Shown: one piece after another, positions 2,276-26,503 of the stretch
Layout: each line of letters begins with the position of its first letter
Position numbering within the stretch: the stretch's first letter is position 1
Origin: a virus
Taxonomy: Duplodnaviria > Heunggongvirae > Uroviricota > Caudoviricetes
IMG/VR virus record: IMGVR_UViG_2663763000_000012
Strand: one strand, 5' to 3'
Length of the DNA: 30,351 nt
Program-made: the position numbers and the translations under genes
Notes under the pieces: generated by a model
The model's input: only the letters and a program-made list of their open reading frames with translations
What the model was told of the DNA's origin: nothing
Databases searched by the model: none

Positions 2276-4723
2276 TTAACCGTCATGCATCATGCTGGCA
2301 CGGGCGCGCGCACGTTTATCCCGCTCGTATTTTTCGAGCGCAGCCTGTAACTGGCGGTCAAGCTGTGTCCCCGGCGCATTACCACCCGTCAGGCTGATGT
2401 GATATTCGTTTTTACTCTGGTCCACATAAGAGCGGCCAGCCGGTGCCGTGACCGGCTGATAAGCCTGATAGCCTGCATAAGAGCTGGTCGCCGGAATATA
2501 ACCACCGCTGCCATACGTGGCGGCTTGAGTTCTGGCGGCGGTCTGGTCAAGTGTGTCTGACTCTTTGTTGATAACACCGAGTTTTTCCAGTACCCAGTCA
2601 ATACCGCTGCGCAGTTTGTTGAACGCATTAAGCGGCAGCATCAGCGCGTCAGCCAGTGCCTGCCCGAACATGACCCCCGTGTCACGGCAACTGTTCAGGG
2701 TGTCCTGAGTGGCTTTGACCGGGGCAATCAGGTTTTTAAACCACTGCCACGCGGCCTGTAACTTTTCACCCAGCCAGTCAAACACCGGCTTAAGTGGCGT
2801 GAACAGTTCCCCCACCGGCGCAAATGCCGCTTTCAGCCCTTCCACCACACCGCCAAAGAATGCGCTGACAGGCTCCCAGTATTTACGGATAAGCAACGCC
2901 CCGGCGACAATGGCGGCCACCACGGCCACAACCGGCCAGCTAATCGCTCCGATGGCGGTCATAACAGCACTGCCAACCGTCGTGAAGATTGCCCCCATTG
3001 CGCCTGCTGCCGCGATGATGGCATTGATGCCGGTGATAACCGGCCAGGCTACGAGGCCAATGGCACCGATGACACCAATCAGTGCCAGTGCACCACCGAC
3101 AATGATGCCGATGGTTGACGCCAGTGATTTGTTTTTCTGGATCCAGCCGTCGAGTTTTAACACATACTTTGTGGCCGTCTGCGTGAGCTTACGCAGCGCG
3201 CCTTCCTGCTGGTCAAACAGGTCAGTCCCCACTGCCTCATAAGCGGACTGAAACTCTTTAAAGTCACCGCCTAGGTTGTCCTGCATGATATTTACCAGCT
3301 CGGCGGTCTTCCCGTCTGAGGCTTTAAACGCAGCGGTCAGTTTGTCCAGCTTTCCGGTTGAGGCGGCAGTCATCAGCACGGCGGCGGCTGAGCTGGCCTC
3401 CTCCCCGAAAATAGTTTTCATGTATTCAGCCTGCTGGGCAGTACCGAGCCGGTTTTTCTCAAAACTGGCCTGCATTTCTTTCAGAATGGTAAATATTGGC
3501 CGGGTGTTTCCCTTGCTGTCTGAGGTTTTCACTCCAAGCTCTTTGAGTGCATCCCATGCTTTTCCCGTCGGTGCCTGCAGGCGGCTTAACACGGCACGGC
3601 TTCCCGTCCCCGCCATTGAGCCTGTGATTTTTGCATCATGCAGCGCCCCGACCATTGCGGCGGTTTCTTCAATGCTGACACCGGCATTTTTTGCCACAGG
3701 TGCGGCATAGGTCAGCGCATCGCTCATGCCGTCAAAATCGGCGGCGGTTTTGTTCATCGTCATGGAGAGAACATCCCCGATATGAGCGACCTTATCGTTT
3801 GAAAGCTGAAAGGCGGATTTCATCCCCATCAGCAGGGCGGCGTTTTCTTCCATCGTGCGGCGGTTCGCCAGCGCCATATTCAGCGTGACCGGCGTTGCCG
3901 CCTGAATGGCATCAACATCCCCACCCGCTTTCGCGATGATTATCTGTGCACCGGCCGCATCATCCGCCGAGGCGGCGGTATTGTCGCCGAGCTGGCGCGC
4001 CTGTTTGCGTAGTGCGGTCATTTCGGCGGAGTCTTTTGCCACTCCGAGCACGGCCTGCAATTCTGAGTTTTTCTGCGCAAACTCATAACCGGGCATCAGC
4101 AACTTAACTCCGGCCATCGTTCCCGCAGCAGCAATCCCCACACCGGCAGCGCCTACTGAGGCCATATTTCCGGCCAGTTCCTTTCCGGCCTGATAACGCT
4201 GTTTGACTGCGTTAAGTTTTGCCTGTTGCGCACTGACACGCGCCAGCGCGTCGCGCTGCCGGTTAAGCTGTGCGGTGGTTTCACTGATACGGTTTTTCAG
4301 TCCCTGCTCATCATGTGCAAGATTGCGGGTATTAATTCCCACAACGGCCAGTTCCCGCTGCTGGCGTTTAACGGAATCCGTCAGGCGGTTATATTTCGCC
4401 TGTAAGTCCTCCGTCGCACGCTTTGCGGATTCCAGCACTTTCACCTGAGCACGGGTCGGTCGTTCGGTATTTTTAAACTGTGTGGCAAGGGCTTCAGCTT
4501 CCTGCCGTGCCTTTTCAAGTGCATGACCAGTCACGGCAAGCTGTGCACTGGTCTTGCGAAATCCCTCAATACGGGATGCCTGACCGTTCAGCTCGCGCAG
4601 TGATTTTTGTGTTTCCCGGATATCCCCCGACAGCGACTTACTCGCTGTGCGGATGGATTTAAACGGGCGGGATGCCTGGTCAACAGCCCTGAGCAATACC
4701 TGTAATTTTACATTGTTACTCAT
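2276..4723 (-). CDS. T: Tail tape measure protein T
   Basis: 815 aa, coiled-coil-rich N-terminus, Gly/Ala-rich hydrophobic central segment, directly downstream of E/E'; size matches P2 gpT. Confidence 0.9.
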   Translation of the reverse strand: MSNNVKLQVLLRAVDQASRPFKSIRTASKSLSGDIRETQKSLRELNGQASRIEGFRKTSAQLAVTGHALEKARQEAEALATQFKNTERPTRAQVKVLESAKRATEDLQAKYNRLTDSVKRQQRELAVVGINTRNLAHDEQGLKNRISETTAQLNRQRDALARVSAQQAKLNAVKQRYQAGKELAGNMASVGAAGVGIAAAGTMAGVKLLMPGYEFAQKNSELQAVLGVAKDSAEMTALRKQARQLGDNTAASADDAAGAQIIIAKAGGDVDAIQAATPVTLNMALANRRTMEENAALLMGMKSAFQLSNDKVAHIGDVLSMTMNKTAADFDGMSDALTYAAPVAKNAGVSIEETAAMVGALHDAKITGSMAGTGSRAVLSRLQAPTGKAWDALKELGVKTSDSKGNTRPIFTILKEMQASFEKNRLGTAQQAEYMKTIFGEEASSAAAVLMTAASTGKLDKLTAAFKASDGKTAELVNIMQDNLGGDFKEFQSAYEAVGTDLFDQQEGALRKLTQTATKYVLKLDGWIQKNKSLASTIGIIVGGALALIGVIGAIGLVAWPVITGINAIIAAAGAMGAIFTTVGSAVMTAIGAISWPVVAVVAAIVAGALLIRKYWEPVSAFFGGVVEGLKAAFAPVGELFTPLKPVFDWLGEKLQAAWQWFKNLIAPVKATQDTLNSCRDTGVMFGQALADALMLPLNAFNKLRSGIDWVLEKLGVINKESDTLDQTAARTQAATYGSGGYIPATSSYAGYQAYQPVTAPAGRSYVDQSKNEYHISLTGGNAPGTQLDRQLQAALEKYERDKRARARASMMHDG

Positions 4724-5143
4724 TCGTGTTTCCGCTTCGCCGGAGCGCCTTTTCGCGCCATGTGATGAGTTCGGTCAGGCTCATGGGATACAGTTCTGAT
4801 GGCGGCCAGTGAAATATCACTGCCACATCCGCCATCAGGTCATCGACCGAGAGATTTTTCGGAAACGTCACTGCACCGAGTTCGGCGACAAAAAACCGAC
4901 CACCTTACCGGCCAGCGCCACAAGGTCAGGCAGTTCCAGCGCGGCGACTTCCTGCTCGGTCAGCATCGGTGCCGTCATGCGCGGCAGCACCTTAATCAGT
5001 GCATCGACTTCGGAGTTTGCAACCGCAGCCAGACTGACACCGCGTAGCGTCCCGGCATTGGGTTTCATCAGCGTGACCTGTTCGATAACCTGCTCACCAC
5101 GTTTGACCGGATTGTCCAGGGTAATGACATTTTCTTTGTTCAT
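4716..5143 (-). CDS. E+E': Tail assembly chaperone E+E' produced by -1 programmed frameshift
   Basis: Slippery run GGTTTTTTG on the minus strand (plus coordinates about 4889-4897) inside E. Hand translation in the -1 frame from this site stays open to a TAA at 4716-4718, giving about 142 aa in total and overlapping the T start codon (4721-4723). Confidence 0.75.
4868..5143 (-). CDS. E: Tail assembly chaperone E (zero-frame product)
   Basis: 91 aa ORF MNKENVITLDNPVKRGEQ... between FII and T; ATG at 5141-5143; stop TGA at 4868-4870. Confidence 0.85.
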   Translation of the reverse strand: MNKENVITLDNPVKRGEQVIEQVTLMKPNAGTLRGVSLAAVANSEVDALIKVLPRMTAPMLTEQEVAALELPDLVALAGKVVGFLSPNSVQ

Positions 5144-5199
5144 GGTTTTCTCACTTCTGAATCAGGGTTAACCGGCCAGCCAGGCTGACCGGATGAAAA

Positions 5200-5718
5200 T
5201 CACAGGCCGATATTGCGGCGGTGTTGCTCCAGCCGGTCGACGCCGTTCACCTTCTCAATCATGTTGATGGTGTCAATTTCGACCAGCTCCTTACCGTCCA
5301 TCGTCAGCCGGAAATAGGTGCAGACCACTGAGATTTTCGACTCGGTGTCTTCTCCCTGTTTCCCCTCGCCGGTGTCGATTTCTTTCTGACGTCCACGCAT
5401 GACCACTTCGACGGCCACCGTTTCGCCGGTATCGTCGCGCTGGTAAGAGCCTGCAAAACGAATCGGCACGGCATCCACACCGGTTGCGGCGTAAAGCTCC
5501 CAGATAACCGAATCCGGGAAGCCACCGAGCGACCACTCCATTGACAGCGCATCGTCATCAAGGCCGAGGTCTACCGGTGCGCTGCCGTTCATCCCCGCAC
5601 CGCGATAGTTTTCGAGCTTACGGGTCAGTTTTGGTAGCGTGACGGACTTCGCGACGCCCTGATAGCTGTAGCCGTTCAGAAAGACGTTCATTAACTTGAG
5701 TTTGCGCGGCATTGCCAT
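5200..5718 (-). CDS. FII: Tail tube protein FII
   Basis: 172 aa ORF immediately downstream of FI; size and position match P2 gpFII. Confidence 0.9.
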   Translation of the reverse strand: MAMPRKLKLMNVFLNGYSYQGVAKSVTLPKLTRKLENYRGAGMNGSAPVDLGLDDDALSMEWSLGGFPDSVIWELYAATGVDAVPIRFAGSYQRDDTGETVAVEVVMRGRQKEIDTGEGKQGEDTESKISVVCTYFRLTMDGKELVEIDTINMIEKVNGVDRLEQHRRNIGL

Positions 5719-5730
5719 CGGTCAGGCTCC

Positions 5731-6831
5731 TTAATTGCTGTTAACCGAAGTGACCAGACTTGCCAGGTATCTGGAAGTAATACGCTGGCGCAGGGTCAGG
5801 TTTTCAAGAGGAGGCACCGGTGTATAGTCGTAGTCGATATACAGTTTTCCGGCCTTGAGGGTTTCCGCATCGTTGGATTCTTCGCTGAACCAGCAGGTCG
5901 CATCCACGATATAGCCGTTTGTTTTCAGCTCACGGAATTTGGCATTGATGCCGTCAACGATGTCGCGAATCAGCGTTGCGGTGATGGGCTTGTCCACCGC
6001 CCACATGTGCGCCTCAGCCATCGTGTCGGCCAGCACCTGCGCGGTGCGGGTGTAGTTTTCAAAGAGGAACAGCGGGTCATCAGAGCAGGTACGGTTACCC
6101 CAGAAGCGGAAACCGTCACGGCGAATCAGCGTAGTGACGCCTGACTCGTTAAGCAGGTCAGCATCGGTGCCGGACTCCTGCAAATCCCAGAATACAGATG
6201 CGCTGATGCCGGTAACACCGTTTACCCCGACGTTGGACAGCGTTTTATGCCAGCCCTGCTCCTGGTCGATTCTGGCACGCAGACCCAGCGCACGGGCGGT
6301 GGCATACGCGGTGGCGGTGGTACTGGTGACCGTATCCCATGCGCTGATATACCCGAAAGCGCGCAGCTTCTGACAGACTGATGCCAGTGCAACAGCCACC
6401 TCTTTGGTATCCAGCCCCGGCACACCGAGAATACGCGGTTTAACACCAGTTACCGACTCCGCCGCCAGCAGGGCTTTCAGTCCGGTGTACTGACCGTTTT
6501 CGTCGGTGGTGCCGATGATATTGGAAACGGTCTGCGCGAGCTTCGTTTCTTCGTCATCGCCGGTGCCCTCTTCCACGCGCACGACAACGGTGACCGGTTT
6601 TGACTGGTCAGCGATGGCCTGCAACGACGCCGCCAGCGTGCCTTTTTTACCGGCCTTTGCAATTGCACTCTGCACATTGGTAATCAGCACCGGTTTATTG
6701 AGGGGGAAGGTTTCCGCATCCGCATCGCTGGCCGTGCAGACCATGCCGACAATGGCAGTGGATACGGTGGAAATGACGCGGGTGCCGTCGTTAATCTCCA
6801 GCACCTGCACGCCGTGATGATAGTCACTCAT
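5731..6831 (-). CDS. FI: Contractile tail sheath protein FI
   Basis: 366 aa ORF, first gene of the FI-FII-E-T-U-D block; somewhat shorter than the P2 FI I remember (about 396 aa). Confidence 0.85.
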   Translation of the reverse strand: MSDYHHGVQVLEINDGTRVISTVSTAIVGMVCTASDADAETFPLNKPVLITNVQSAIAKAGKKGTLAASLQAIADQSKPVTVVVRVEEGTGDDEETKLAQTVSNIIGTTDENGQYTGLKALLAAESVTGVKPRILGVPGLDTKEVAVALASVCQKLRAFGYISAWDTVTSTTATAYATARALGLRARIDQEQGWHKTLSNVGVNGVTGISASVFWDLQESGTDADLLNESGVTTLIRRDGFRFWGNRTCSDDPLFLFENYTRTAQVLADTMAEAHMWAVDKPITATLIRDIVDGINAKFRELKTNGYIVDATCWFSEESNDAETLKAGKLYIDYDYTPVPPLENLTLRQRITSRYLASLVTSVNSN

Positions 6832-6890: not shown

Positions 6891-7484
6891 CTATTTGTCC
6901 CGGTTGGCTAAGGGATGACACAATTTATTCTTTGTCGCTGATGAGGGAAATTTTTTATAGAGCGTGGACAGACCAATATCAAAAATCAGTGCCACGCGTT
7001 GACGTGACTCCCCTGCAGCCAGCAAACGCCCGGCCTGCTCCCACTCACTCGTGGTGAGTTTAGGACGTCTGCCACCAATACGACCTTTGGCTCTGGCCGC
7101 TTCCAGCCCGGCCCGAGTCCGCTCGACAATGAGTTCTCGTTCCATTTCAGCCAGGGCACCCATCACATGAAAGAAAAAACGCCCCATCGGCGTGCTGGTA
7201 TCAATGGCATCCGTCAGGCTGCGAAAATTAATGCCGCGTTCGCGCAGCTCCTCAACCAGAATGACCAGATGCCGCATACTACGCCCCAGCCGGTCCAGCT
7301 TCCAGACTACCAGTGTATCCCCCTCCGATAATGTCCTGAGCAGTTTTTTCAGCCCCGGCCTGTCGGACTTCGTGCCGCTGATTTTATCCTCAAAAATCAG
7401 CTCACATCCTGCGCACTCCAGCGCGTTACGCTGCAATTCCGTATTCTGGTCATTTGTTGACACGCGGACATAGCCAATAAGCAT
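6891..7484 (-). CDS. Serine-recombinase DNA invertase (Gin/Cin/Pin/Hin family)
   Basis: N-terminus MLIGYVRVSTNDQ with the catalytic Ser motif of resolvase/invertase enzymes; C-terminal HTH region with ...STLYKKFP...; 197 aa; ATG at 7482-7484. Sits next to a tail-fibre region with oppositely oriented cassettes. Confidence 0.9.
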   Translation of the reverse strand: MLIGYVRVSTNDQNTELQRNALECAGCELIFEDKISGTKSDRPGLKKLLRTLSEGDTLVVWKLDRLGRSMRHLVILVEELRERGINFRSLTDAIDTSTPMGRFFFHVMGALAEMERELIVERTRAGLEAARAKGRIGGRRPKLTTSEWEQAGRLLAAGESRQRVALIFDIGLSTLYKKFPSSATKNKLCHPLANRDK

Positions 7485-7539
7485 GATGGATCCCCTGAAT
7501 AAAAACCGGGGATGATGCCAGTTAGCCGTAATCTCTGCA

Positions 7540-7565
7540 TTTTCTTAAACGTTGGTTTGGGGGAA
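7540..7565. other. Left crossover site (gix/cix-like 26-bp dyad) of the invertible tail-fibre segment
   Basis: TTTTCTTAAACGTTGGTTTGGGGGAA, imperfect dyad symmetry with AAAC/GTTT-containing half-sites; 20 of 26 positions match the inverted copy at 9345-9370, including a 10-nt identical core TTGGTTTGGG. Confidence 0.55.
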
Positions 7566-7901
7566 TTGGCTCTGGCTGGCGCAACAACCGGCGCTATGTT
7601 GGTGAATGGGTATGTAGCAATTCCATTAATTATTTCTGGCGTTCGGAGACCACTTATTATCCAGTGGGGAGTGGGGCAGTTTGGGGGAAGTCTGGGGGAT
7701 GATGCGGGATATTTAAACAATTTCCCTTTCGCTTTTCCGTCGGCGTGCTACGTGATGGTTGCCAGCCACGTGGGGCATACACCTTCGGGTGCCGGAATAC
7801 TATCTGCTTCCGCAATCACAAAAAGCGGCTTTCGTGGTTTTTCCAGCGTAGCGACTGCCGCAAATCCTGTATCGGGCTGTTATGTTGCTATAGGAGGGTG
7901 A
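7566..7901 (+). other. Promoterless alternative tail-fibre C-terminal cassette (Sv'-like), currently in the non-expressed orientation
   Basis: Open frame on the + strand running straight through the left crossover site (...NVGLGELALAG...), with no credible start of its own. The GLGE junction motif is shared with tail fibre H (...AYLGLGEG...) at the right crossover site. Stop at 7899-7901. Confidence 0.6.
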
Positions 7902-7902
7902 T

Positions 7903-8337
7903 GTGTTTTTTAGTCCATCTTTAAATATTTTTGTGAATCCTGCGCTTAAGGATGACTACATCAATGTAAATTCATGGCCAGATGATGCTGTTGAAGTTGA
8001 TGAGCAGGTGTATATTGAGTTTTCCGGATTACCGCCGAAAGGAAAAATCCGTATCGCTGGGGAAAATGGTTTTCCTGCATGGTCTGAAATTCCACCACCA
8101 ACGCATGAGGAACAGATTGCCGCAGCCGAATTGAAAAAACAGCAATTGATTAATCAGTCCAACGAATATATGAATACCAAGCAATGGCCTGGTAAAGCGG
8201 CTATTGGTCGTCTGAAAGGTGAGGAACTGGCGCAATATAATTTGTGGCTGGATTATCTGGACGCACTGGAACTGGTTGATACCTCCAGTGCTCCAGATAT
8301 TGAATGGCCTACGCCTCCGGCAGTTCAGGCCAGATGA
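7903..8337 (+). CDS. Alternative tail fibre assembly chaperone (U'-like)
   Basis: 144 aa, GTG start at 7903 preceded by AGGAGG (7892-7897); C-terminus ...DTSSAPDIEWPTPP... parallels the C-terminus of the minus-strand chaperone (8309-8902, ...DTSTAPDVIWPELP...). The two genes converge and overlap at their 3' ends. Confidence 0.7.
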   Translation: MFFSPSLNIFVNPALKDDYINVNSWPDDAVEVDEQVYIEFSGLPPKGKIRIAGENGFPAWSEIPPPTHEEQIAAAELKKQQLINQSNEYMNTKQWPGKAAIGRLKGEELAQYNLWLDYLDALELVDTSSAPDIEWPTPPAVQAR

Positions 8338-18945: not shown

Positions 18946-19118
18946 TGTCAGGAGTCCTGAATAGTGATTAGAGGAGTCACATGTCGGCATCAGTTTCCCG
19001 ACGATGCGCATCCTCCGCCATCAGTCCCGGATGGCTTATCACTGACACAACAGCACCTTAGCGAATCGCGGGGCGCGACTCAGTAGCCTTGCCGTGTATT
19101 CATCACGGCGAGGTATTC
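18946..19118. promoter_or_regulatory. Divergent late promoter region between O (minus) and P (plus)
   Basis: 173-bp intergenic region between divergently transcribed capsid and terminase operons, equivalent to the Ogr-dependent PO/PP region of P2. No perfect TGT-N12-ACA element was found by eye, so exact promoter positions are not called. Confidence 0.45.
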
Positions 19119-20891
19119 ATGACCATCACCACAGACACCACTCTTTTACACGACCCGCGTCGTCAGGCGGCGCTGCTGTACTGGCAGGGGTTTTCCGTGC
19201 CGCAGATTGCCGCCATGTTGCAGATGAAACGCCCGACGGTGCAGAGCTGGAAACAGCGCGACGGCTGGGACAGCGTTGCTCCCATCAGCCGTGTCGAAAT
19301 GAGTCTGGAAGCGCGGCTGACCCAGCTCATCATCAAACCGCAGAAAACCGGCGGTGACTTCAAGGAAATTGACCTGCTCGGACGCCAGATTGAACGACTG
19401 GCACGGGTAAACCGCTACAACCAGACCGGCAACGAGGCAGACCTTAATCCGAACATCGCTAACCGCAACAAAGGCGGGCGGCGCAAACCGAAAAAGAATT
19501 TTTTCAGCGACGAGGCTATCGAAAAGCTGGATCAGATTTTCTTTGAGCAGTCTTTCGACTATCAGTTGCACTGGTATCGCGCCGGGCTTGAGCACCGCAT
19601 CCGCGATATCCTGAAATCCCGCCAGATTGGCGCGACGTTTTATTTTTCCCGCGAGGCGCTGCTGCGCGCCCTGAAAACCGGTCATAACCAGATTTTTCTG
19701 TCGGCCAGTAAAACGCAGGCGTATGTGTTCCGCGAATACATCATCGCCTTTGCCCGGCTGGTTGACGTTGACCTGACCGGTGACCCGATTGTCCTGGGCA
19801 ATAACGGCGCAAAACTGATTTTTCTCGGCACCAACTCCAACACCGCGCAGAGTCATAACGGCGACCTGTACGTCGATGAGATTTTCTGGATCCCGAATTT
19901 TCAGGTACTGCGTAAGGTGGCATCAGGTATGGCCTCACAGAGTCACCTGCGCTCGACCTATTTCTCCACCCCGTCCACGCTGGCGCACGACGCCTACCCG
20001 TTCTGGTCGGGTGAACTGTTTAACCGGGGACGCGCCAGCGCCGCCGAACGCGTGGAAATCGACGTCAGTCATAACGCCCTTGCCGGTGGGCTTCTCTGTG
20101 CGGACGGCCAGTGGCGACAGATTGTCACCATTGAGGACGCCCTGAAAGGCGGCTGCACGCTGTTCGACATTGAGCAGCTCAAACGCGAAAACAGCGCCGA
20201 CGATTTTAAAAACCTGTTCATGTGTGAATTTGTTGACGACAAGGCATCGGTGTTCCCGTTCGAGGAGCTGCAACGCTGCATGGTCGACACGCTGGAAGAA
20301 TGGGAAGACTATGCGCCGTTTGCCGCCAATCCGTTCGGCTCCCGCCCGGTATGGATTGGTTACGACCCGTCACACCGTGGCGACAGCGCCGGATGCGTGG
20401 TACTGGCACCGCCGGTGGTGGCCGGTGGCAAATTCAGAATACTTGAGCGTCACCAGTGGAAAGGCATGGACTTTGCCACTCAGGCTGAATCCATCCGCAA
20501 ACTCACCGAGAAATACAACGTCGAATACATCGGTATTGATGCCACCGGCCTCGGTGTCGGCGTGTTCCAGCTCGTGCGCTCGTTCTATCCCGCCGCACGC
20601 GACATCCGCTACACGCCGGAAATGAAAACCGCAATGGTGCTCAAGGCAAAAGACGTTATCCGCCGTGGCTGTCTGGAATATGACGTCAGCGCCACCGACA
20701 TCACCAGCTCGTTTATGGCTATCCGCAAGACCATGACCAGCAGCGGACGCAGCGCCACCTATGAGGCCAGCCGCAGCGAGGAAGCCAGCCACGCCGACCT
20801 CGCCTGGGCGACCATGCACGCCCTGTTAAATGAGCCACTCACCGCCGGTATCAGCACCCCGCTGACATCCACCATTCTGGAGTTTTACTGA
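19119..20891 (+). CDS. P: Terminase ATPase (large) subunit P
   Basis: ATG at 19119-19121 preceded by GAGGTA; MTITTDTTLLHDPRRQAALLYWQGF...; about 590 aa; stop overlaps the Q start (TGATG). Confidence 0.9.
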   Translation: MTITTDTTLLHDPRRQAALLYWQGFSVPQIAAMLQMKRPTVQSWKQRDGWDSVAPISRVEMSLEARLTQLIIKPQKTGGDFKEIDLLGRQIERLARVNRYNQTGNEADLNPNIANRNKGGRRKPKKNFFSDEAIEKLDQIFFEQSFDYQLHWYRAGLEHRIRDILKSRQIGATFYFSREALLRALKTGHNQIFLSASKTQAYVFREYIIAFARLVDVDLTGDPIVLGNNGAKLIFLGTNSNTAQSHNGDLYVDEIFWIPNFQVLRKVASGMASQSHLRSTYFSTPSTLAHDAYPFWSGELFNRGRASAAERVEIDVSHNALAGGLLCADGQWRQIVTIEDALKGGCTLFDIEQLKRENSADDFKNLFMCEFVDDKASVFPFEELQRCMVDTLEEWEDYAPFAANPFGSRPVWIGYDPSHRGDSAGCVVLAPPVVAGGKFRILERHQWKGMDFATQAESIRKLTEKYNVEYIGIDATGLGVGVFQLVRSFYPAARDIRYTPEMKTAMVLKAKDVIRRGCLEYDVSATDITSSFMAIRKTMTSSGRSATYEASRSEEASHADLAWATMHALLNEPLTAGISTPLTSTILEFY

Positions 20892-21925
20892 TGAGCAAGA
20901 AAAAAGGGAAAACACCGCAACCTGCGGCAAAAAAAATGACCGCCAGCGCCCCGAAAATGGAAGCATTCACCTTTGGTGAGCCGGTGCCGGTACTCGACCG
21001 CCGTGACATTCTGGATTACGTCGAGTGCATCAGTAACGGCAGATGGTATGAGCCACCGGTCAGCTTTACTGGTCTGGCAAAAAGCCTGCGTGCTGCCGTG
21101 CATCACAGCTCACCAATTTACGTCAAACGCAATATTCTGGCCTCGACATTTATCCCGCATCCGTGGCTTTCACAGCAGAATTTCAGCCGCTTTGTGCTGG
21201 ACTTTCTGGTGTTCGGTAATGCGTTTCTGGAAAAGCGTTACAGCACCACCGGTAAGGTCATCAGACTGGAAACCTCACCGGCAAAATATACCCGCCGTGG
21301 CGTGGAGGAGGATGTTTACTGGTGGGTGCCGTCCTTCAACGAGCCGACAGCCTTCGCTCCCGGCTCCGTGTTTCACCTGCTGGAGCCGGATATTAATCAG
21401 GAGCTGTACGGCCTGCCGGAATATCTCAGCGCCCTTAACTCTGCCTGGCTGAATGAGTCGGCCACGCTGTTCCGCCGCAAGTATTACGAAAACGGCGCTC
21501 ATGCCGGATACATCATGTACGTCACCGATGCCGTGCAGGATCGCAACGATATCGAAATGCTTCGCGAAAACATGGTTAAGTCGAAAGGCCGCAATAACTT
21601 TAAAAATCTGTTTCTCTATGCCCCACAGGGGAAAGCCGACGGCATTAAAATTATCCCGCTCAGTGAAGTGGCAACGAAGGACGATTTTTTTAATATCAAA
21701 AAAGCCAGCGCCGCTGACCTGCTGGACGCGCATCGCATCCCCTTTCAGTTGATGGGCGGCAAGCCGGAGAACGTCGGGTCACTGGGAGATATTGAGAAAG
21801 TGGCAAAGGTCTTTGTCCGCAATGAGCTTATCCCGTTACAGGACAGGATTCGGGAAATAAACGGCTGGCTCGGTCAGGAGGTCATCCGCTTTAAAAACTA
21901 CTCACTGGACACTGACAACGACTGA
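20891..21925 (+). CDS. Q: Portal (capsid portal vertex) protein Q
   Basis: 344 aa ORF immediately after P and followed by a terminator and cos; size matches P2 gpQ. Confidence 0.9.
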   Translation: MSKKKGKTPQPAAKKMTASAPKMEAFTFGEPVPVLDRRDILDYVECISNGRWYEPPVSFTGLAKSLRAAVHHSSPIYVKRNILASTFIPHPWLSQQNFSRFVLDFLVFGNAFLEKRYSTTGKVIRLETSPAKYTRRGVEEDVYWWVPSFNEPTAFAPGSVFHLLEPDINQELYGLPEYLSALNSAWLNESATLFRRKYYENGAHAGYIMYVTDAVQDRNDIEMLRENMVKSKGRNNFKNLFLYAPQGKADGIKIIPLSEVATKDDFFNIKKASAADLLDAHRIPFQLMGGKPENVGSLGDIEKVAKVFVRNELIPLQDRIREINGWLGQEVIRFKNYSLDTDND

Positions 21926-21930
21926 ACATC

Positions 21931-21952
21931 GCCGCCTGCGGGCGGCTTTTTT
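21931..21952 (+). terminator. Rho-independent terminator after Q
   Basis: GCCGCC-TGCG-GGCGGC hairpin followed by TTTTTTT, 6 nt after the Q stop codon. Confidence 0.65.
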
Positions 21953-22094
21953 ACAACCCGCCATCACGCCCTCACACGCTCACCACCGCACAAAACAGCC
22001 CGCAGACACACCAACGCCCCGGCTAACAATCTAAACGCCATCACGACGCGCTCAGACGCTGAAAAAATAAAATCAGCACCACCGCCAGCGCGCA

Positions 22095-22113
22095 GTGCTT
22101 TCCCCGCCTCGCC
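22095..22113. other. cos: cos cohesive-end site (19 nt)
   Basis: GTGCTTTCCCCGCCTCGCC is the exact reverse complement of the P2 cohesive-end sequence as I recall it (GGCGAGGCGGGGAAAGCAC); it lies just beyond Q, where cos sits in P2. Confidence 0.8.
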
Positions 22114-22268
22114 CGCCCGCCCGCTTCATGGGTCGGTTTGAATGCAGTTGAATTACAACTACCAAACCAAGCAATCCCTACTATTACGCAGAAAATGCAT
22201 ACTGAAATACCTCGTGCAAATTGATGCAGCTAAGTATGCATAGGTTTTATGCCTCAACGTATACGTTA

Positions 22269-24101
22269 TCAAACAGAGCCCTGTTCAAAAACAGTATCAA
22301 AATATGGTAGGAGAGGATAAGCACACAGAAAGAAAATCAGGATGCATGCATATGTCGTTGTTTCATCGTAACAAGCATTAGTATATAAATTACCATGTGC
22401 TAATTTATGTCTTAAGGTTGCCCCACTCTTTCTGTTAAAAAGAACATCGATAGTCAAAACAAGATTTTTAGAAAAGATACTTTCCAAATCATCTCTGCAT
22501 TTATCTAGAAGCTGAGAAATACTTGTTGACTCCTCTAATCCCTTATCCAAATATCTAGTAGCATCCTTTCCGCTAAGCTCATAATAATAACGAACCATAC
22601 CTTCCATTTGTGGTATTAAAAGATAAGCTGCACTGATGTAATCTCCCTGCCATAATTTGTAAAAGCCCAAATTAAAAATCTCCCTAAACTCCGGCTTGAC
22701 AATTGGACTAGTTGTAACCAATTTAACGAATGTTGACAACGTCAAGCCATGTTCTTGAGAAAGTACATAGCGAGCAGGTTCAAAGACACCGTTTACAAAA
22801 ATCTTATGAGTAATCTCGAAATTTCTTAGATATTGATCAATAACAACATCATCACTCATATATTTTTTATTATCCAACGGCGGGATTGTATATATCTTAC
22901 GCCCACTCTCATCATTAATTTCTGTTCCAACAAAACTAGAGAATAAACTTTTTTCTGATAATCTTAAAACTTGTTCCCTCATGCTTTCAATATTTTCAAT
23001 CGGTGTTTCACTCATTAAAACTTTGAATATATCGGGCAAAGAACGCCCCGTCAGTTTTTTTTCACTTTCAGCAACCAAGTCACTAATATCAATAGAATGG
23101 CTTAAAGTGACATATTCACTCCTTACTTCTTCTCTCAAATTAGCAAGTTGTTCCTTTAAATCTTCTATCTGTTGGCTATCACCACCGTACTGTCTTAATT
23201 CAGAGATAGCTGTTCTTAACCAAGAGATCTTACCCATATTATCAGGTCGTTCTGTTGCAACTTTAATAGTAATATTTGCAGATGCCAGTTTACATCTCTT
23301 GGCACGTTCATACTCACCATTTTTTTCATAAATAACTGCACTTGTCATATAAAGTGATTTTACAGCATCATAATATTTTTTATCTTTATGCTGCTCAGCC
23401 ATCTTCTCAGCATTTTCCGCATACTGCAGATTATACCCATCAAAATCACGCACCATAAACCAAGTCAAATTATTGAAACCTTCAAAGATTAATCTTTCAT
23501 TTTGAATACTATAAAGAGAATGAATGGCATTTTTAATCGCCATGTTTCCTTCTGATTTTCTAGGGTAGACCATTTTATTAATGTGCAAAGCCCTAGCAAT
23601 ATAATCACGAGCAAAAATAAAGCAATTTAAATCACTTTCATCCATGCTTTCGTTTTTTATTATTAGCTTTTCAATTGCTATATTTAGCATTTCAGCATAG
23701 GAATCAATTGCTTTAATTGCCACGTCTTTATTTTTCCGATTATTACACCAAACAACATCATATATTCTTGATAACAAAAATGGATTGGTTATTTTTTGAG
23801 AAACATATAAAAGACAGTCATTCACCTGCTCATCAAAATCTTCAGGCAATATTGATCTTTTATTACCCCAAATCATTTGGGGTTCAAATGATGGAGTGTT
23901 GTTAACAACTTGCAAATTGAAACTATATAGCATACCAAAAAGAGATGCTAATTTTTTCTCTTTGGGGTTTTCTGATGACTCAGCAATCCCATCCAGATAT
24001 TTTTTTATTTTATGTGCATGAAATGTAACTGGTATATGCATAAAAACACTATAATCTAGTGTTTCAAGCTCTTCCCTTGTAAGAACAAAGATATCATTCA
24101 T
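22269..24101 (-). CDS. Large AT-rich cargo protein of unknown function; candidate anti-phage defence/abortive-infection effector with a C-terminal HEPN-like R-x4-H motif
   Basis: Continuous ORF (645 codons from a TTG at 24204-24206; 610 aa from the ATG at 24099-24101, which has an AAGGTG Shine-Dalgarno 7 nt upstream). Strongly AT-rich compared with the flanking prophage. Occupies the tin/old accessory locus between cos and gene A. Motif LRHKLAHG at 22395-22412; no Walker A motif seen. Confidence 0.75.
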   Translation of the reverse strand: MNDIFVLTREELETLDYSVFMHIPVTFHAHKIKKYLDGIAESSENPKEKKLASLFGMLYSFNLQVVNNTPSFEPQMIWGNKRSILPEDFDEQVNDCLLYVSQKITNPFLLSRIYDVVWCNNRKNKDVAIKAIDSYAEMLNIAIEKLIIKNESMDESDLNCFIFARDYIARALHINKMVYPRKSEGNMAIKNAIHSLYSIQNERLIFEGFNNLTWFMVRDFDGYNLQYAENAEKMAEQHKDKKYYDAVKSLYMTSAVIYEKNGEYERAKRCKLASANITIKVATERPDNMGKISWLRTAISELRQYGGDSQQIEDLKEQLANLREEVRSEYVTLSHSIDISDLVAESEKKLTGRSLPDIFKVLMSETPIENIESMREQVLRLSEKSLFSSFVGTEINDESGRKIYTIPPLDNKKYMSDDVVIDQYLRNFEITHKIFVNGVFEPARYVLSQEHGLTLSTFVKLVTTSPIVKPEFREIFNLGFYKLWQGDYISAAYLLIPQMEGMVRYYYELSGKDATRYLDKGLEESTSISQLLDKCRDDLESIFSKNLVLTIDVLFNRKSGATLRHKLAHGNLYTNACYDETTTYACILIFFLCAYPLLPYFDTVFEQGSV

Positions 24102-24117
24102 CGTTTTCACCTTTTTC

Positions 24118-24148
24118 AGTATAAATTTGCACACATTATTATTAGCAA
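24118..24148 (-). promoter_or_regulatory. Putative sigma70-like promoter for the cargo gene
   Basis: On the minus strand, TTGCTA then a 19-nt spacer then TATACT, just upstream of the ATG at 24101. The spacer is longer than optimal, so this is weak. Confidence 0.3.
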
Positions 24149-24220
24149 CATAACTATCAATAGTTAACACATGCAGATAAACAGCAATTTTACTATTATG
24201 CAACAAATTAAATCAGATGT

Positions 24221-26503
24221 TTATTGCTCTGAATAACAATAAAACCAACTCCACTCATCAGCGACCGGATACGTAAATTTTTTCCCGTTGTAATTTACGA
24301 TCGCGCCACGCGCCAGCGCCTCAAGCTCCCATCGCTGCGGCCTGATACCGTTCTGAGCAAGGTCAACGCGGATACGGGTAATTTGCATTCTTTCCGACCG
24401 GGTCAGTCTGGCCGATGGCGCTATTTCATGCGGTTTTAACGGTCTTCCGTTTCTTTGCTGACGGTTTGGTCTTCTCAGGCCGTGTTTTAATGCGCCCCTG
24501 AGCGCCCTCACGACCTCCGGGTCATTCCATTCGATAACACCGTCATCAACCAGATTAAGCACTGCTGCGGCGTGCTCAGAAGGCGTGGGAGCCGGTAACG
24601 AAGTATCACCACCGGTGAGCTTTCCACAGTTATTGACAGGACTCCGAGGCGCGGCGATGCCGCTTTTTAAAGTCAAAGGCTCAACGACCGGAACTTTCGG
24701 AACAATGCGCCACTCCGTCGTTCTGGTGATATGAATATGGCGCGCGCCGAGATGCGGCGCGTAAATGCCGACCACTCTCTCGACTTCTTCCTCGTACTCG
24801 TTAACTTCATCCGACGGGCTACGGGCGACCCTGACAGTCTGACAATCGCGCTGGACATTTGCCCCACCCTGCGCGCTGATATACAACGCAAAATCACCAC
24901 TGTCTGCGGCGGCGCGTGCAGCCTCGACGCGCTCGTCAAACTCATCAGCAATGCTGACGCCGCGAGGCAATTTGCGTAGTTCACGGTAAGCCCCCATTGT
25001 CGGCAGGCCAACCGTTTTAAATTGCGGGATGCGCCACGTTGACGCCCATGCGGTAACAGCCGCTGCAGTGTCTTTCAGCGGCCTGCCGGTGTCGTTATCG
25101 AGCTGACCATCCAGTGCATAACCGTCGATGTTTTTTGAAATGTATTTCGCGATATATCCCGCAGCACCGCCCCGGTTAAGGTGTTTTGCCTGAAAACGGT
25201 TTCGCGCGGCTCCTCTTTCGTCGCCATCCTCTTTGAGCGCATAGCGGCGCATGATTTCGATAATCTGGTTACGCTGGCGTGGATTACAAAAAAGCATCAT
25301 ATGCCAGTGCGGCGTTCCGTCGTGGTGTGGCTCGACGACTCGCAAACCGTAGACCTGTAAATCATTATCCTTGAATGCCGTGCGCATCAGGCTCCAGATA
25401 CGGCAGAGATAACGCTGCGCATCCTTTGGATTAAATGCCTCATCGTTCCAGCCGTGATTAAGCTGGACGGTTTTATTTTCGCCTTTTCCGACCTGACGTG
25501 TCGGGTGATACTTTGACGGCGCGGTAAGCGTGATAAACATCCCCACATCACCCTCTGCGGCGGCGTAACGCTCAATACCGGCAATGGTGTTCATCAGCTC
25601 CATCCGGCGAATTTCTGGATTAGAAATACTGCCCATCACCTTACTGATAAGGTCGATGCGCTCGCCGGTTTCCCTGTTTTCAAGGTCACACGATTTAAGA
25701 AATTCCAGATTTGCCTGGCGGCGCGCACGCACATCACGAATGGCATGTTTACTGGCATAAGGAGAACGGTCTTTATTGACCTCCCCGACAGCAATCAGTA
25801 ACGCCTCATGCCAGCGCATACGCTGGCCTTTAAGCTGACTAATCCACCACTCATCGTTAAACAGACGGGCAATGGCAGAATATGCCTGCCTCGTGGTCAT
25901 CTGTCCTTTACGGTATTTTTTCCAGTAGAGCGGGGAAATATTGAAAGCACGTGCAGCGCCAGCAACATGACCATACAGGTGAGCCTGCGCCTCATCCGTA
26001 AACAGCGATTCTTTTTCACCATGCGCATCAACCCATGCATCGCAGAGTTCCTCATACATCATGAAAAGCTGCGATGAGATACGGGCGGCAAACTTTTTCA
26101 GCTCCTTGTCATTCATTCCAGGCAGGCGCGCATAGTGGCCACGCTCTGCCAAAAACAGCAACGACGCGTCGGTGTTCATTTCATGGCGCTGATTCACGCG
26201 CTCAATGCGCGGCCATAAACGACGCTGAAAAGTGGATGTGAGGAAATAAAACCCGTGCACCGGGCTTTTATTGCGCCGGATGTAGTCATAGCGTGAAGTA
26301 AACAGCGAACGCAAAAAGTAAGGCAGGCGGTTAATCGTGGATAAAACACCTTGCACCTGACGCATCTCGTCACGTGTAAGGGGTCTTTCGCGCCCGACGG
26401 CCTCGCGTGGCGCGTTCCATGCATAAGCACCGGTAAACGTCTTACCGGTGCCTGCGGCAAATGCTGACGGAGGGACAAAACGCCCGGAGGCTTTAACGGC
26501 CAT
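24221..26503 (-). CDS. A: Replication initiation protein A (rolling-circle replication endonuclease)
   Basis: ATG at 26501-26503 gives MAVKASGRFVPPSAFAAGTGK...; about 760 aa; the ORF-track start at 26545 is a TTG extension. The largest early gene, in the position of P2 gene A. Confidence 0.9.
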   Translation of the reverse strand: MAVKASGRFVPPSAFAAGTGKTFTGAYAWNAPREAVGRERPLTRDEMRQVQGVLSTINRLPYFLRSLFTSRYDYIRRNKSPVHGFYFLTSTFQRRLWPRIERVNQRHEMNTDASLLFLAERGHYARLPGMNDKELKKFAARISSQLFMMYEELCDAWVDAHGEKESLFTDEAQAHLYGHVAGAARAFNISPLYWKKYRKGQMTTRQAYSAIARLFNDEWWISQLKGQRMRWHEALLIAVGEVNKDRSPYASKHAIRDVRARRQANLEFLKSCDLENRETGERIDLISKVMGSISNPEIRRMELMNTIAGIERYAAAEGDVGMFITLTAPSKYHPTRQVGKGENKTVQLNHGWNDEAFNPKDAQRYLCRIWSLMRTAFKDNDLQVYGLRVVEPHHDGTPHWHMMLFCNPRQRNQIIEIMRRYALKEDGDERGAARNRFQAKHLNRGGAAGYIAKYISKNIDGYALDGQLDNDTGRPLKDTAAAVTAWASTWRIPQFKTVGLPTMGAYRELRKLPRGVSIADEFDERVEAARAAADSGDFALYISAQGGANVQRDCQTVRVARSPSDEVNEYEEEVERVVGIYAPHLGARHIHITRTTEWRIVPKVPVVEPLTLKSGIAAPRSPVNNCGKLTGGDTSLPAPTPSEHAAAVLNLVDDGVIEWNDPEVVRALRGALKHGLRRPNRQQRNGRPLKPHEIAPSARLTRSERMQITRIRVDLAQNGIRPQRWELEALARGAIVNYNGKKFTYPVADEWSWFYCYSEQ

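Follow-up and report, generated by a model that had tools for sequence, protein, structure and literature searches.

A putative HEPN-family cargo gene in the gene A–cos hotspot of a P2-like prophage

The AT-rich island analysed here is the cargo module of a catalogued variable locus of P2-like phages, the gene A–cos/Q interval or 'tin-old region', a P2 defence hotspot. It carries a single gene, read on the minus strand from an ATG at 24101 to a stop at 22269, within the window (the whole 30,351-nt stretch of phage DNA under study). The 610-aa product begins with a DUF7380 domain, continues with a TPR-like middle and ends in a HEPN-like domain that carries an invariant catalytic signature. On balance we favour, with moderate confidence, the view that this single-gene cargo encodes an abortive-infection or exclusion HEPN RNase, expressed from a weak promoter of its own and by read-through from gene A. 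Locus and gene are already known and catalogued, so that the island itself adds nothing new, and the gene's biochemical function is putative. Every sequence element pointed out by an initial annotation of this island is present where it was placed, and only some of them exceed chance.

The cargo slot and its boundaries

In this P2-like prophage the cargo gene is flanked by replication gene A on one side and by cos and portal gene Q on the other. The features that define the slot are as follows.

19089–20891: gpP
20891–21925: gpQ (portal gene Q)
22095–22113: cos, the 19-nt P2-family cohesive-end sequence (GTGCTTTCCCCGCCTCGCC on the plus strand)
22269–24101, minus strand: cargo gene, 610-aa protein with DUF7380, TPR-like middle and HEPN (DUF4209); equivalent to PDC-S39, phrog_5183 and system #13 of Rousset et al.
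24221–24250, minus strand: gene A stop and the ~10 codons before it, AT-rich, past the P2 homology breakpoint (blastn)
24221–26503: gpA (replication gene A)

GC content is 0.328 over 22242–24250, compared with 0.558 in the P/Q flank and 0.538 in gene A; the cargo CDS has a GC of 0.332 and a GC3 of 0.257, and gene A a GC3 of 0.555. Along 50-nt windows, GC drops next to cos from 0.80 and 0.66 (at 22075 and 22100) to 0.40 (at 22125); near gene A it climbs back from 0.28 (at 24200) to 0.70 (at 24300). The abrupt compositional island originally drawn from about 22120 to the gene A stop (24221) agrees with this profile, its edges shifting slightly, to about 22241 and 24251. Homology to P2 (blastn, 94% identity) ends at 24251, ~30 nt inside gene A, and the last ~10 codons of that gene are therefore part of the variable segment. 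Towards cos, the conserved boxes of the probable packaging signal reach to about 22241, where GC is already low.

The flanks are matched in 1897 of 5426 Escherichia coli genomes and the insert in only 55. Phage records match only query positions 1 to 214–261 together with the end of gene A, the insert being replaced among relatives. Orthologues with 48–67% identity occupy the same slot in Klebsiella, Kosakonia and Enterobacter phages, as does a homologue of 26% identity in a GC-rich P2-like phage, and in every case the cargo gene forms an AT-rich island. The reading of the gene as a moron, that is, a horizontally acquired prophage gene in a locus that P2-like phages use for anti-phage genes, is borne out. 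The gpA–gpQ locus is the P2 defence hotspot published by Rousset et al. (2022), and in P2 itself the slot between gene A and cos holds old and tin, exclusion genes that are likewise AT-rich prophage accessory cargo. Their products (the OLD ATPase-nuclease and Tin) are unrelated to the cargo protein, and the two genes, whose mapped starts lie next to cos, are read in the direction of gene A, whereas the cargo gene is co-oriented with gene A.

The same gene has been catalogued in this locus before. In Table S5B of Rousset et al. (2022) it is system #13, 'DUF4209', with 193 loci at the P2 hotspot. The version from E. coli S88, annotated 'Putative HEPN', was cloned with its native upstream DNA (plasmid pFR103) and tested on eight phages. 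It is listed under 'additional tested systems', outside the validated set, and because pFR103 appears only there we take it that no defence was seen against the eight phages. That system and the window share the protein (beginning MNDIFVLTREEL), the gpA–gpQ locus and the upstream DNA, save for a 3-bp spacer difference; in the window allele, 19 nt rather than 16 nt separate the promoter-like hexamers and there is one more CGCC unit by cos, with no substantial difference otherwise.

The cargo gene, its start and its protein

Start codon and domains lie at the following positions.

24204–24206, minus strand: TTG opening the longest ORF, not the real start; its 35-codon extension is found in none of the orthologues
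24099–24113, minus strand: Shine-Dalgarno AAGGTG (24113–24108), 6-nt spacer and ATG (24101–24099), read from the sequence; orthologue starts align here, and PGAP calls the 610-aa CDS
23550–24092, minus strand: N-terminal DUF7380 domain, residues 4–184 (Pfam E = 4e-39), presumed sensor or regulatory
22590–22604, minus strand: E500 and R504 (EGMVR), the remaining two invariant polar C-terminal residues
22395–22412, minus strand: Rx4H motif R564-HKLA-H569, the HEPN catalytic signature, invariant in 72 sequences (translation checked)
22272–22814, minus strand: C-terminal HEPN-like domain, about residues 430–610

Comparison with relatives strongly favours the ATG at 24099–24101 as the start. The initial annotation had already set this codon, with its AAGGTG, beside the TTG at 24204–24206, and the ATG prevails because all orthologues and the Pfam, PHROG, PADLOC and PGAP assignments begin there and the Klebsiella orthologue L019 has a stop codon immediately upstream of its ATG. 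Homology thus rules out the TTG, and it also rules out the GTG start proposed by other gene callers (632 aa).

The DUF7380 assignment (PF24098) is secure, at 134.6 bits for a gathering threshold of 27, and all 72 diverse relatives match it too. The middle of the protein is TPR-like and helical. The C-terminal domain is all-alpha, as in the HEPN fold, and R564 and H569 are conserved without exception across 72 sequences of 20–67% identity, in keeping with the Rx4-6H signature of HEPN domains. Only R564, H569, E500, R504 and G400 are invariant among these diverse members. DUF4209 (PF13910) scores 20.0 bits in the cargo protein (E = 7e-4), below the Pfam gathering threshold of 22.3 bits, and it matches 62 of the 72 relatives at E ≤ 0.01 (best 1e-12). 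A model of the C-terminal domain finds its best structural matches in the HEPN domains of Csm6, AbiA and HEPN-MNT toxins, with which it has the Rx4-6H motif in common. A profile search of PDB sequences for a relative of solved structure gave chance matches only (E ≥ 0.13).

With 3359 clusters at 50% identity, this is a very large family, and its architecture of ~620 aa is constant. The PADLOC HMM for PDC-S39 matches the cargo protein over its full length (residues 7–596 against positions 8–599 of 615, E = 1.8e-83, 279 bits); PDC-S39 is a computational candidate, and we found no experimental validation of it in the literature. Nor did the literature on DUF7380, DUF4209, PDC-S39, HEPN-TPR and ERMARD yield a functional study of the bacterial family. 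NCBIfam has no model for the protein, Rfam gave no meaningful match over 21800–24500, and pattern scans of genome contigs with two family alignments returned pattern matches and zero confirmed relatives.

Several described systems resemble the cargo protein in part. Anantharaman et al. [quoted passage not shown] Eukaryotic ERMARD members are membrane-anchored ER proteins, unlike the cargo protein, and bacterial DUF4209 members have been reported in operons related to restriction–modification, whereas the cargo gene stands alone. HepS (of Gifsy-1) and Tha (of Staphylococcus aureus phages) are single-protein HEPN abortive-infection systems of prophages, triggered by structural proteins of incoming phages; HepS cleaves tRNA anticodon loops. 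Like them, the cargo gene is prophage-encoded and specifies a single polypeptide with a HEPN domain, in this case a predicted RNase. The profile search of PDB sequences detected no homology to HepS or Tha, and the accessory DUF7380 and TPR-like parts differ.

Expression and proposed function

Upstream of the cargo gene lies a single promoter-like element.

24118–24148, minus strand: TTGCTA (24148–24143)-N19-TATACT (24123–24118), promoter-like; most alleles have a 16-nt spacer

The initial annotation had taken this element as one sign of an autonomous transcription unit that may be expressed from the repressed prophage. Both hexamers are present (4/6 and 5/6 matches to the sigma-70 consensus), and in a position-weight scan the pair is the top site of the intergenic region. 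In AT-rich DNA this is no better than chance, since its score with the N19 spacer is equalled or beaten in 52%, and that with N16 in 15%, of the 240-nt control windows taken from the cargo CDS. The 19-nt spacer lies outside the canonical 16–18 nt, which is why a consensus scan missed the element; match spans imply N16 in 39 and N19 in 16 of the 55 E. coli genomes. The -10 hexamer ends 17 nt before the ATG, and transcription would therefore start at about 24111, inside the Shine-Dalgarno AAGGTG. The upstream spacers of orthologous loci are 230–240 nt long, unrelated and AT-rich, which leaves room for a promoter of their own. Between gene A and the cargo gene, a terminator scan and folding found no terminator, so that read-through from the early operon is expected after induction, whatever the promoter does.

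We take the gene's location, its cargo nature, the start codon, the domain architecture and the invariant motif as established, and infer an RNase activity, an anti-phage role, a trigger and a promoter as follows. In the lysogen, the cargo gene would probably be driven by a weak promoter within the AT-rich 119 nt upstream of it; after induction it would very probably also be expressed by read-through of the gene A operon, no terminator separating the two genes. The DUF7380 and TPR-like parts may keep the HEPN nuclease off as long as no component of a superinfecting phage is bound to them. Once one is bound, the HEPN domain, probably dimeric, would cut tRNA, rRNA or mRNA, and phage growth would be halted. 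The listing of DUF4209 as a HEPN family and the precedents of HepS and Tha speak for such a protein; the placement of pFR103 outside the validated set, the sub-threshold DUF4209 score and a promoter indistinguishable from background speak against it.

Two other readings merit consideration. The gene might be solely the distal member of the early (Pe: cox-B-A) operon, expressed only after induction or infection and serving the lytic cycle rather than defence by lysogenic conversion. Its task might then be to break down RNA of the host or of a competitor, or to keep superinfecting phage out during lytic growth. Co-orientation with gene A across 119 nt that hold no terminator-like structure fits this, as does a best promoter candidate that equals background and would truncate the Shine-Dalgarno; the native-promoter clone pFR103, without phenotype, would fit poor expression from that DNA alone. 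We nevertheless judge it unlikely: a promoter would fit in the long AT-rich spacers of the orthologues, 39 of 55 alleles have the canonical 16-nt promoter spacer, and hotspot cargo is generally expressed from the prophage (e.g. P2 old and tin, with their own mapped starts).

It is also rather improbable that the protein is no immune effector at all. On that view it could be selfish cargo of no benefit, or a HEPN/TPR protein, catalytically competent or not, that plays some other accessory part, for instance in counter-defence, regulation, RNA processing or host fitness. The published test was negative, non-defensive HEPN families exist (MtlR, Las1 and ERMARD), and two sampled copies (L008 and L014) are frameshifted. 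Yet the invariance of Rx4H in 72 sequences from a family of thousands of clusters speaks for a nuclease that is active, family members turn up repeatedly in this phage hotspot even in distant hosts, and PADLOC lists PDC-S39 as a defence candidate. Returning to the abortive-infection reading, we note that the size of the family, its constant architecture, invariant HEPN site and hotspot recurrence, together with the putative activity, make it a reasonable target for a screen against a broader phage panel.

The cos-proximal boxes and the inverted repeat

Between the cargo stop and cos lie three further features.

22196–22240, minus strand: inverted repeat TGCATACT / AGTATGCA, arms 22196–22203 and 22233–22240; the right arm is the third cos-flank box
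22214–22241: three ATGCA-type boxes (GTGCA 22214–22218, ATGCA 22224–22228, ATGCAT 22236–22241) at a fixed distance from cos
22110–22146: GC-rich conserved cos flank, up to and including the first ATGCA box (22142–22146); invariant columns in a 12-locus alignment

At the two ends of cos, 22095 corresponds to the right end of P2 (AF063097) and 22113 to the first position of the fiAA91-ss record. From the end of cos, the boxes lie at +115, +125 and about +137 in the satellite P4, in P2 and in all other P2-like loci compared, among them pro483, STYP1 and the loci L009–L019. The window alone among the 12 aligned loci, P2 and P4 included, has one extra CGCC unit beside cos, and this 4-nt insertion accounts for its offsets of +119, +129 and +141. 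The ~60 nt that separate the cos flank from the boxes are unconserved. Judged by this conservation, the boxes at 22214–22241 probably belong to the packaging signal of P2 and P4.

The inverted repeat had been put forward as a stem-loop that might end an autonomous transcription unit. The repeat exists and its stem can form; its role as a terminator does not stand. A 9-bp stem followed by UUUU on the sense strand, beginning 28 nt past the cargo stop codon, would suit an intrinsic terminator closing such a unit, which we nonetheless consider very improbable. The stem is AU-rich, with a loop of ~27 nt and UUUU only, and the terminator scan is silent here. Its fold (-13.2 kcal/mol, z = -1.19) lies within the range of shuffled sequences, 25 of 200 folding at least as well, and the stem does not survive whole when the wider region is folded to minimum free energy. 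Orthologous cargo loci have no equivalent hairpin, box-derived palindromes aside. The right arm is the third ATGCA box, whose offset from cos is fixed in P4 and in phages whose cargo is unrelated or runs the other way, and the repeat is therefore no dedicated terminator. A terminator-like site beyond cos (22091–22076, minus strand, followed by a T-rich run) is weak, with 3 G-U pairs and z = +0.25; that it is a real transcript end is only a suggestion.

Two broader conjectures, taken jointly, we rate slightly short of an even chance. PDC-S39 may be a genuine, widespread single-protein abortive-infection RNase whose trigger was absent from the eight-phage panel of 2022, its HEPN domain corresponding in prokaryotes to ERMARD/C6orf70 of eukaryotes. 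Independently of this, the P2 terminase may recognize the ATGCA boxes as cosB-like sites, copied by the satellite P4, in which case they would fix the start of hotspot cargo. The sequence from the cargo stop to cos is constrained by probable packaging-signal boxes common to P4, and annotation of terminators, promoters and cargo boundaries in P2/P4 hotspots should reckon with them.

Gene layout and the published hotspot

The prophage in the window is P2-like, with its orientation reversed relative to the P2 map. Its cargo gene, the gene under study, occupies the interval between gpA and gpQ, arranged as follows.

Principal features of the cargo region
19089-20891, plus strand: terminase gpP
20891-21925, plus strand: portal gpQ
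22095-22113: cos, a P2-family cohesive end of 19 nt (22095 corresponds to the right end of the P2 record, 22113 to position 1 of the fiAA91-ss record)
22142-22146 and 22214-22241: ATGCA-type boxes, present also in loci L022 (P2), L026 (satellite P4), L009-L019, L024 and L025
22269-24206, minus strand: sole long ORF of the cargo region
24221-26503/26545, minus strand: replication gene A, followed by DUF5405 genes, cox, a C-type repressor and an integrase

This interval is known from the literature as the P2 defence hotspot (Rousset et al. 2022, PMC9122126; also PMC13586616). The cargo protein itself is listed there as system #13, ‘DUF4209’, with 193 occurrences (Table S5B), and the same gene, from E. 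coli S88, is carried by plasmid pFR103 as ‘Putative HEPN’ (Table S2B; Rousset et al. 2022, PMC9122126). What the initial annotation observed is largely correct, and its reading, an acquired prophage cargo or defence-type gene, is reasonable but already in the literature; since gene and locus were known, the finding as stated adds little. The insert occurs in 55 of 5426 complete E. coli genomes, the conserved flanks in 1897. In Klebsiella and other P2-like phages, orthologues lie at the equivalent position, as an AT-rich island every time. A family member of 26% identity (locus L017, 1809-3632) adjoins gpQ-gpP-gpO of a P2-like phage from a GC-rich host. There, the flanks are 0.56-0.69 GC and the gene about 0.36-0.50, and an antirepressor-like gene (P22_AR_N) lies upstream, where gpA would be.

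In the window, the island is sharp and real: GC is 0.328 over 22242-24250, versus 0.558 in the P and Q genes and 0.538 in gene A, and no other stretch of the 30-kb window is comparably low. GC and GC3 of the cargo coding sequence are 0.332 and 0.257 (gene A GC3, 0.555), and GC of the spacer upstream is 0.269. The boundaries first proposed hold roughly, but both shift slightly. On the gene A side, the match to P2 (94% identity) ends at 24251, ~30 nt within the gene, and so the last ten codons belong to the variable segment; the recombination joint is therefore internal to gene A, and the C-terminal end of gpA differs from cargo to cargo. These codons (24221-24250), past the breakpoint, are AT-rich. 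On the cos side, low GC begins at ~22125, yet conserved elements of the phage backbone reach ~22241.

Elsewhere in the window, a serine invertase (Resolvase + HTH_7; 6891-7484, minus strand) adjoins a tail-fibre C-terminal fragment on the opposite strand (7512-7901) and a tail-fibre assembly gene (7903-8337). The arrangement, spanning 6891-8337, resembles the invertible host-range switches of the Mu G / P1 C type.

Start codon and promoter

Short of proteomics, sequence comparison settles the start of the cargo gene as the ATG at 24099-24101, the codon preferred in the initial annotation; AAGGTG precedes this ATG by six nucleotides. Its position is shared, to within one residue, by the starts of twenty orthologues from Klebsiella, Kosakonia, Enterobacter and metagenomes (48-67% identity). 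A stop codon immediately precedes the homologous ATG in Klebsiella locus L019, and the upstream frame is open for just 27-33 nt before it in L009 and L010. Alignments to DUF7380, PDC-S39 (a PADLOC candidate family) and phrog_5183 all begin at residues 1-7 of the ATG-started protein, PGAP annotates the same 610-aa form, and Rousset et al. 2022 (PMC9122126) give the protein as beginning MNDIF. The alternative TTG (24204-24206) only opens the longest ORF; orthologue, profile and annotation starts all fall at the ATG.

The proposal that the gene has its own promoter is unproven, and geometrically awkward. The hexamers are present (TTGCTA, 24148-24143; TATACT, 24123-24118) and form the best-scoring candidate in the spacer, but 52% of 240-nt windows within the cargo coding sequence score as well or better, and the 19-nt separation falls outside the usual 16-18. 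Promoter-like sites number 13 in the region versus 8.0 +/- 2.7 in shuffles. Counted from the ATG, the -10 hexamer ends 17 nt upstream, and the predicted transcription start, ~24111, falls inside AAGGTG (24113-24108), so that a single mRNA could not use both this promoter and the full Shine-Dalgarno. At orthologous loci, the spacers upstream of the gene measure 230-240 nt and are unrelated in sequence, making conservation uninformative on this point. By match spans and fetched loci, 39 of the 55 E. coli alleles are one AAT unit shorter, giving a 16-nt promoter spacer, a form whose score is reached in 15% of control windows. The polymorphism lies in an AAT repeat at 24124-24142; the 19-nt form occurs in the window and, by match spans, in 16 of the 55. 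Strain S88, used by Rousset et al., is among the 39. The pFR103 insert starts ~100 nt within gene A and differs little from the window's upstream DNA, the 3-bp spacer deletion being one of the few differences. In P2, by contrast, transcription of old and tin begins at mapped sites next to cos and runs opposite to that of the cargo gene.

Conserved boxes beside cos

An inverted repeat downstream of the cargo gene had been proposed as a possible terminator, wrongly. Its fold (-13.2 kcal/mol, z = -1.19) is at shuffle level, with 25 of 200 shuffles at least as stable; the loop is ~27 nt, only four U residues follow, and the wider minimum-free-energy fold breaks the stem. Each arm includes the palindrome ATGCAT, and 22233-22240, the right arm, corresponds to the third of the backbone boxes. 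ATGCA stands at +43, +115, +125 and usually +137 from the cos end in P2, whose cargo is old/tin, in STYP1, with Fic-type cargo, in pro483, and in six P2-like loci, metagenomic or genomic, whose cargo has diverged. Satellite P4, described by Rousset et al. as having nothing but the cos packaging signal in common with P2, has it at +43, +115, +125 and +138. Across a 12-sequence alignment the boxes are invariant, and the ~60 nt between them and the cos flank are unconserved. Offsets in the window are +47, +119 (GTGCA), +129 and +141, a 4-nt displacement due to one extra CGCC unit beside cos. This unit, in the GC-rich repeat at 22110-22124, is found in none of the 11 other aligned loci, nor in the closest relative, L001.

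Because the boxes are conserved and common to P4, the simplest reading is that they are likely packaging-signal (terminase-recognition) elements. If so, only ~27 nt of cargo-specific DNA follow the stop codon, and the boxes would restrict where hotspot cargo may start. At about 85-140 nt from cos in L011 and L016, they form a long, near-perfect palindrome (TGCATTAGTTTGCATC-N-GATGCAAACTAATGCA) enclosing a T/A run; hairpins derived from the boxes are thus a recurring feature that can be mistaken for terminators. Immediately past cos, towards gpQ, lies a weak hairpin with TGATTTTATTTTTT after it (22076-22091, minus strand), a candidate stop for transcripts crossing cos from the gene A/cargo side, although it lacks statistical support.

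Protein family and proposed function

The cargo protein matches DUF7380 (Pfam) at residues 4-184 (E = 4e-39), PDC-S39 over its full length (E = 2e-83) and, below the 22.3 cut-off, DUF4209 (Pfam) at residues 524-590 (20.0 bits). DUF4209 has been placed in the HEPN superfamily as the C6orf70 family, with TPR fusion and predicted catalytic activity (Anantharaman et al. 2013, PMC3710099). At E <= 1e-3, an exhaustive profile search yielded 3359 clusters, almost all of them 600-640 aa long and matched along their entire length; among sequence relatives, no solved structure was found. DUF7380 is present in 72/72 aligned members and DUF4209 in 62/72. In this alignment, with identity down to 20%, solely G400, E500, R504, R564 and H569 are invariant, and R564-HKLA-H569 is the Rx4H motif of HEPN proteins.

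By analogy with HepS and Tha, single-protein prophage HEPN systems, the DUF7380 and TPR-like parts would detect a component of an incoming phage; sensing would then free the predicted HEPN RNase, which would cut cellular or phage RNA and abort infection. We lean towards this sensor-released RNase with no more than moderate confidence, because structural scores are modest and the published screen was negative: pFR103 appears among the ‘additional tested systems’ (Table S2B) rather than the validated ones (Table S2A; Rousset et al. 2022, PMC9122126), implying no protection against the eight phages of that screen. A literature search for later functional studies of the family found none. The main rivals are a non-defensive accessory role, and action only in the induced lytic phase, via read-through. 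Nothing resembling a terminator lies between gene A and the cargo gene, so early-operon read-through is expected after induction.

In two viral contigs (L008, about 4001-5828; L014, about 4001-5810), the cargo gene is interrupted by an in-frame stop after ~50-57 codons, a pattern that fits frameshifts; these copies are possibly pseudogenes or assembly errors.
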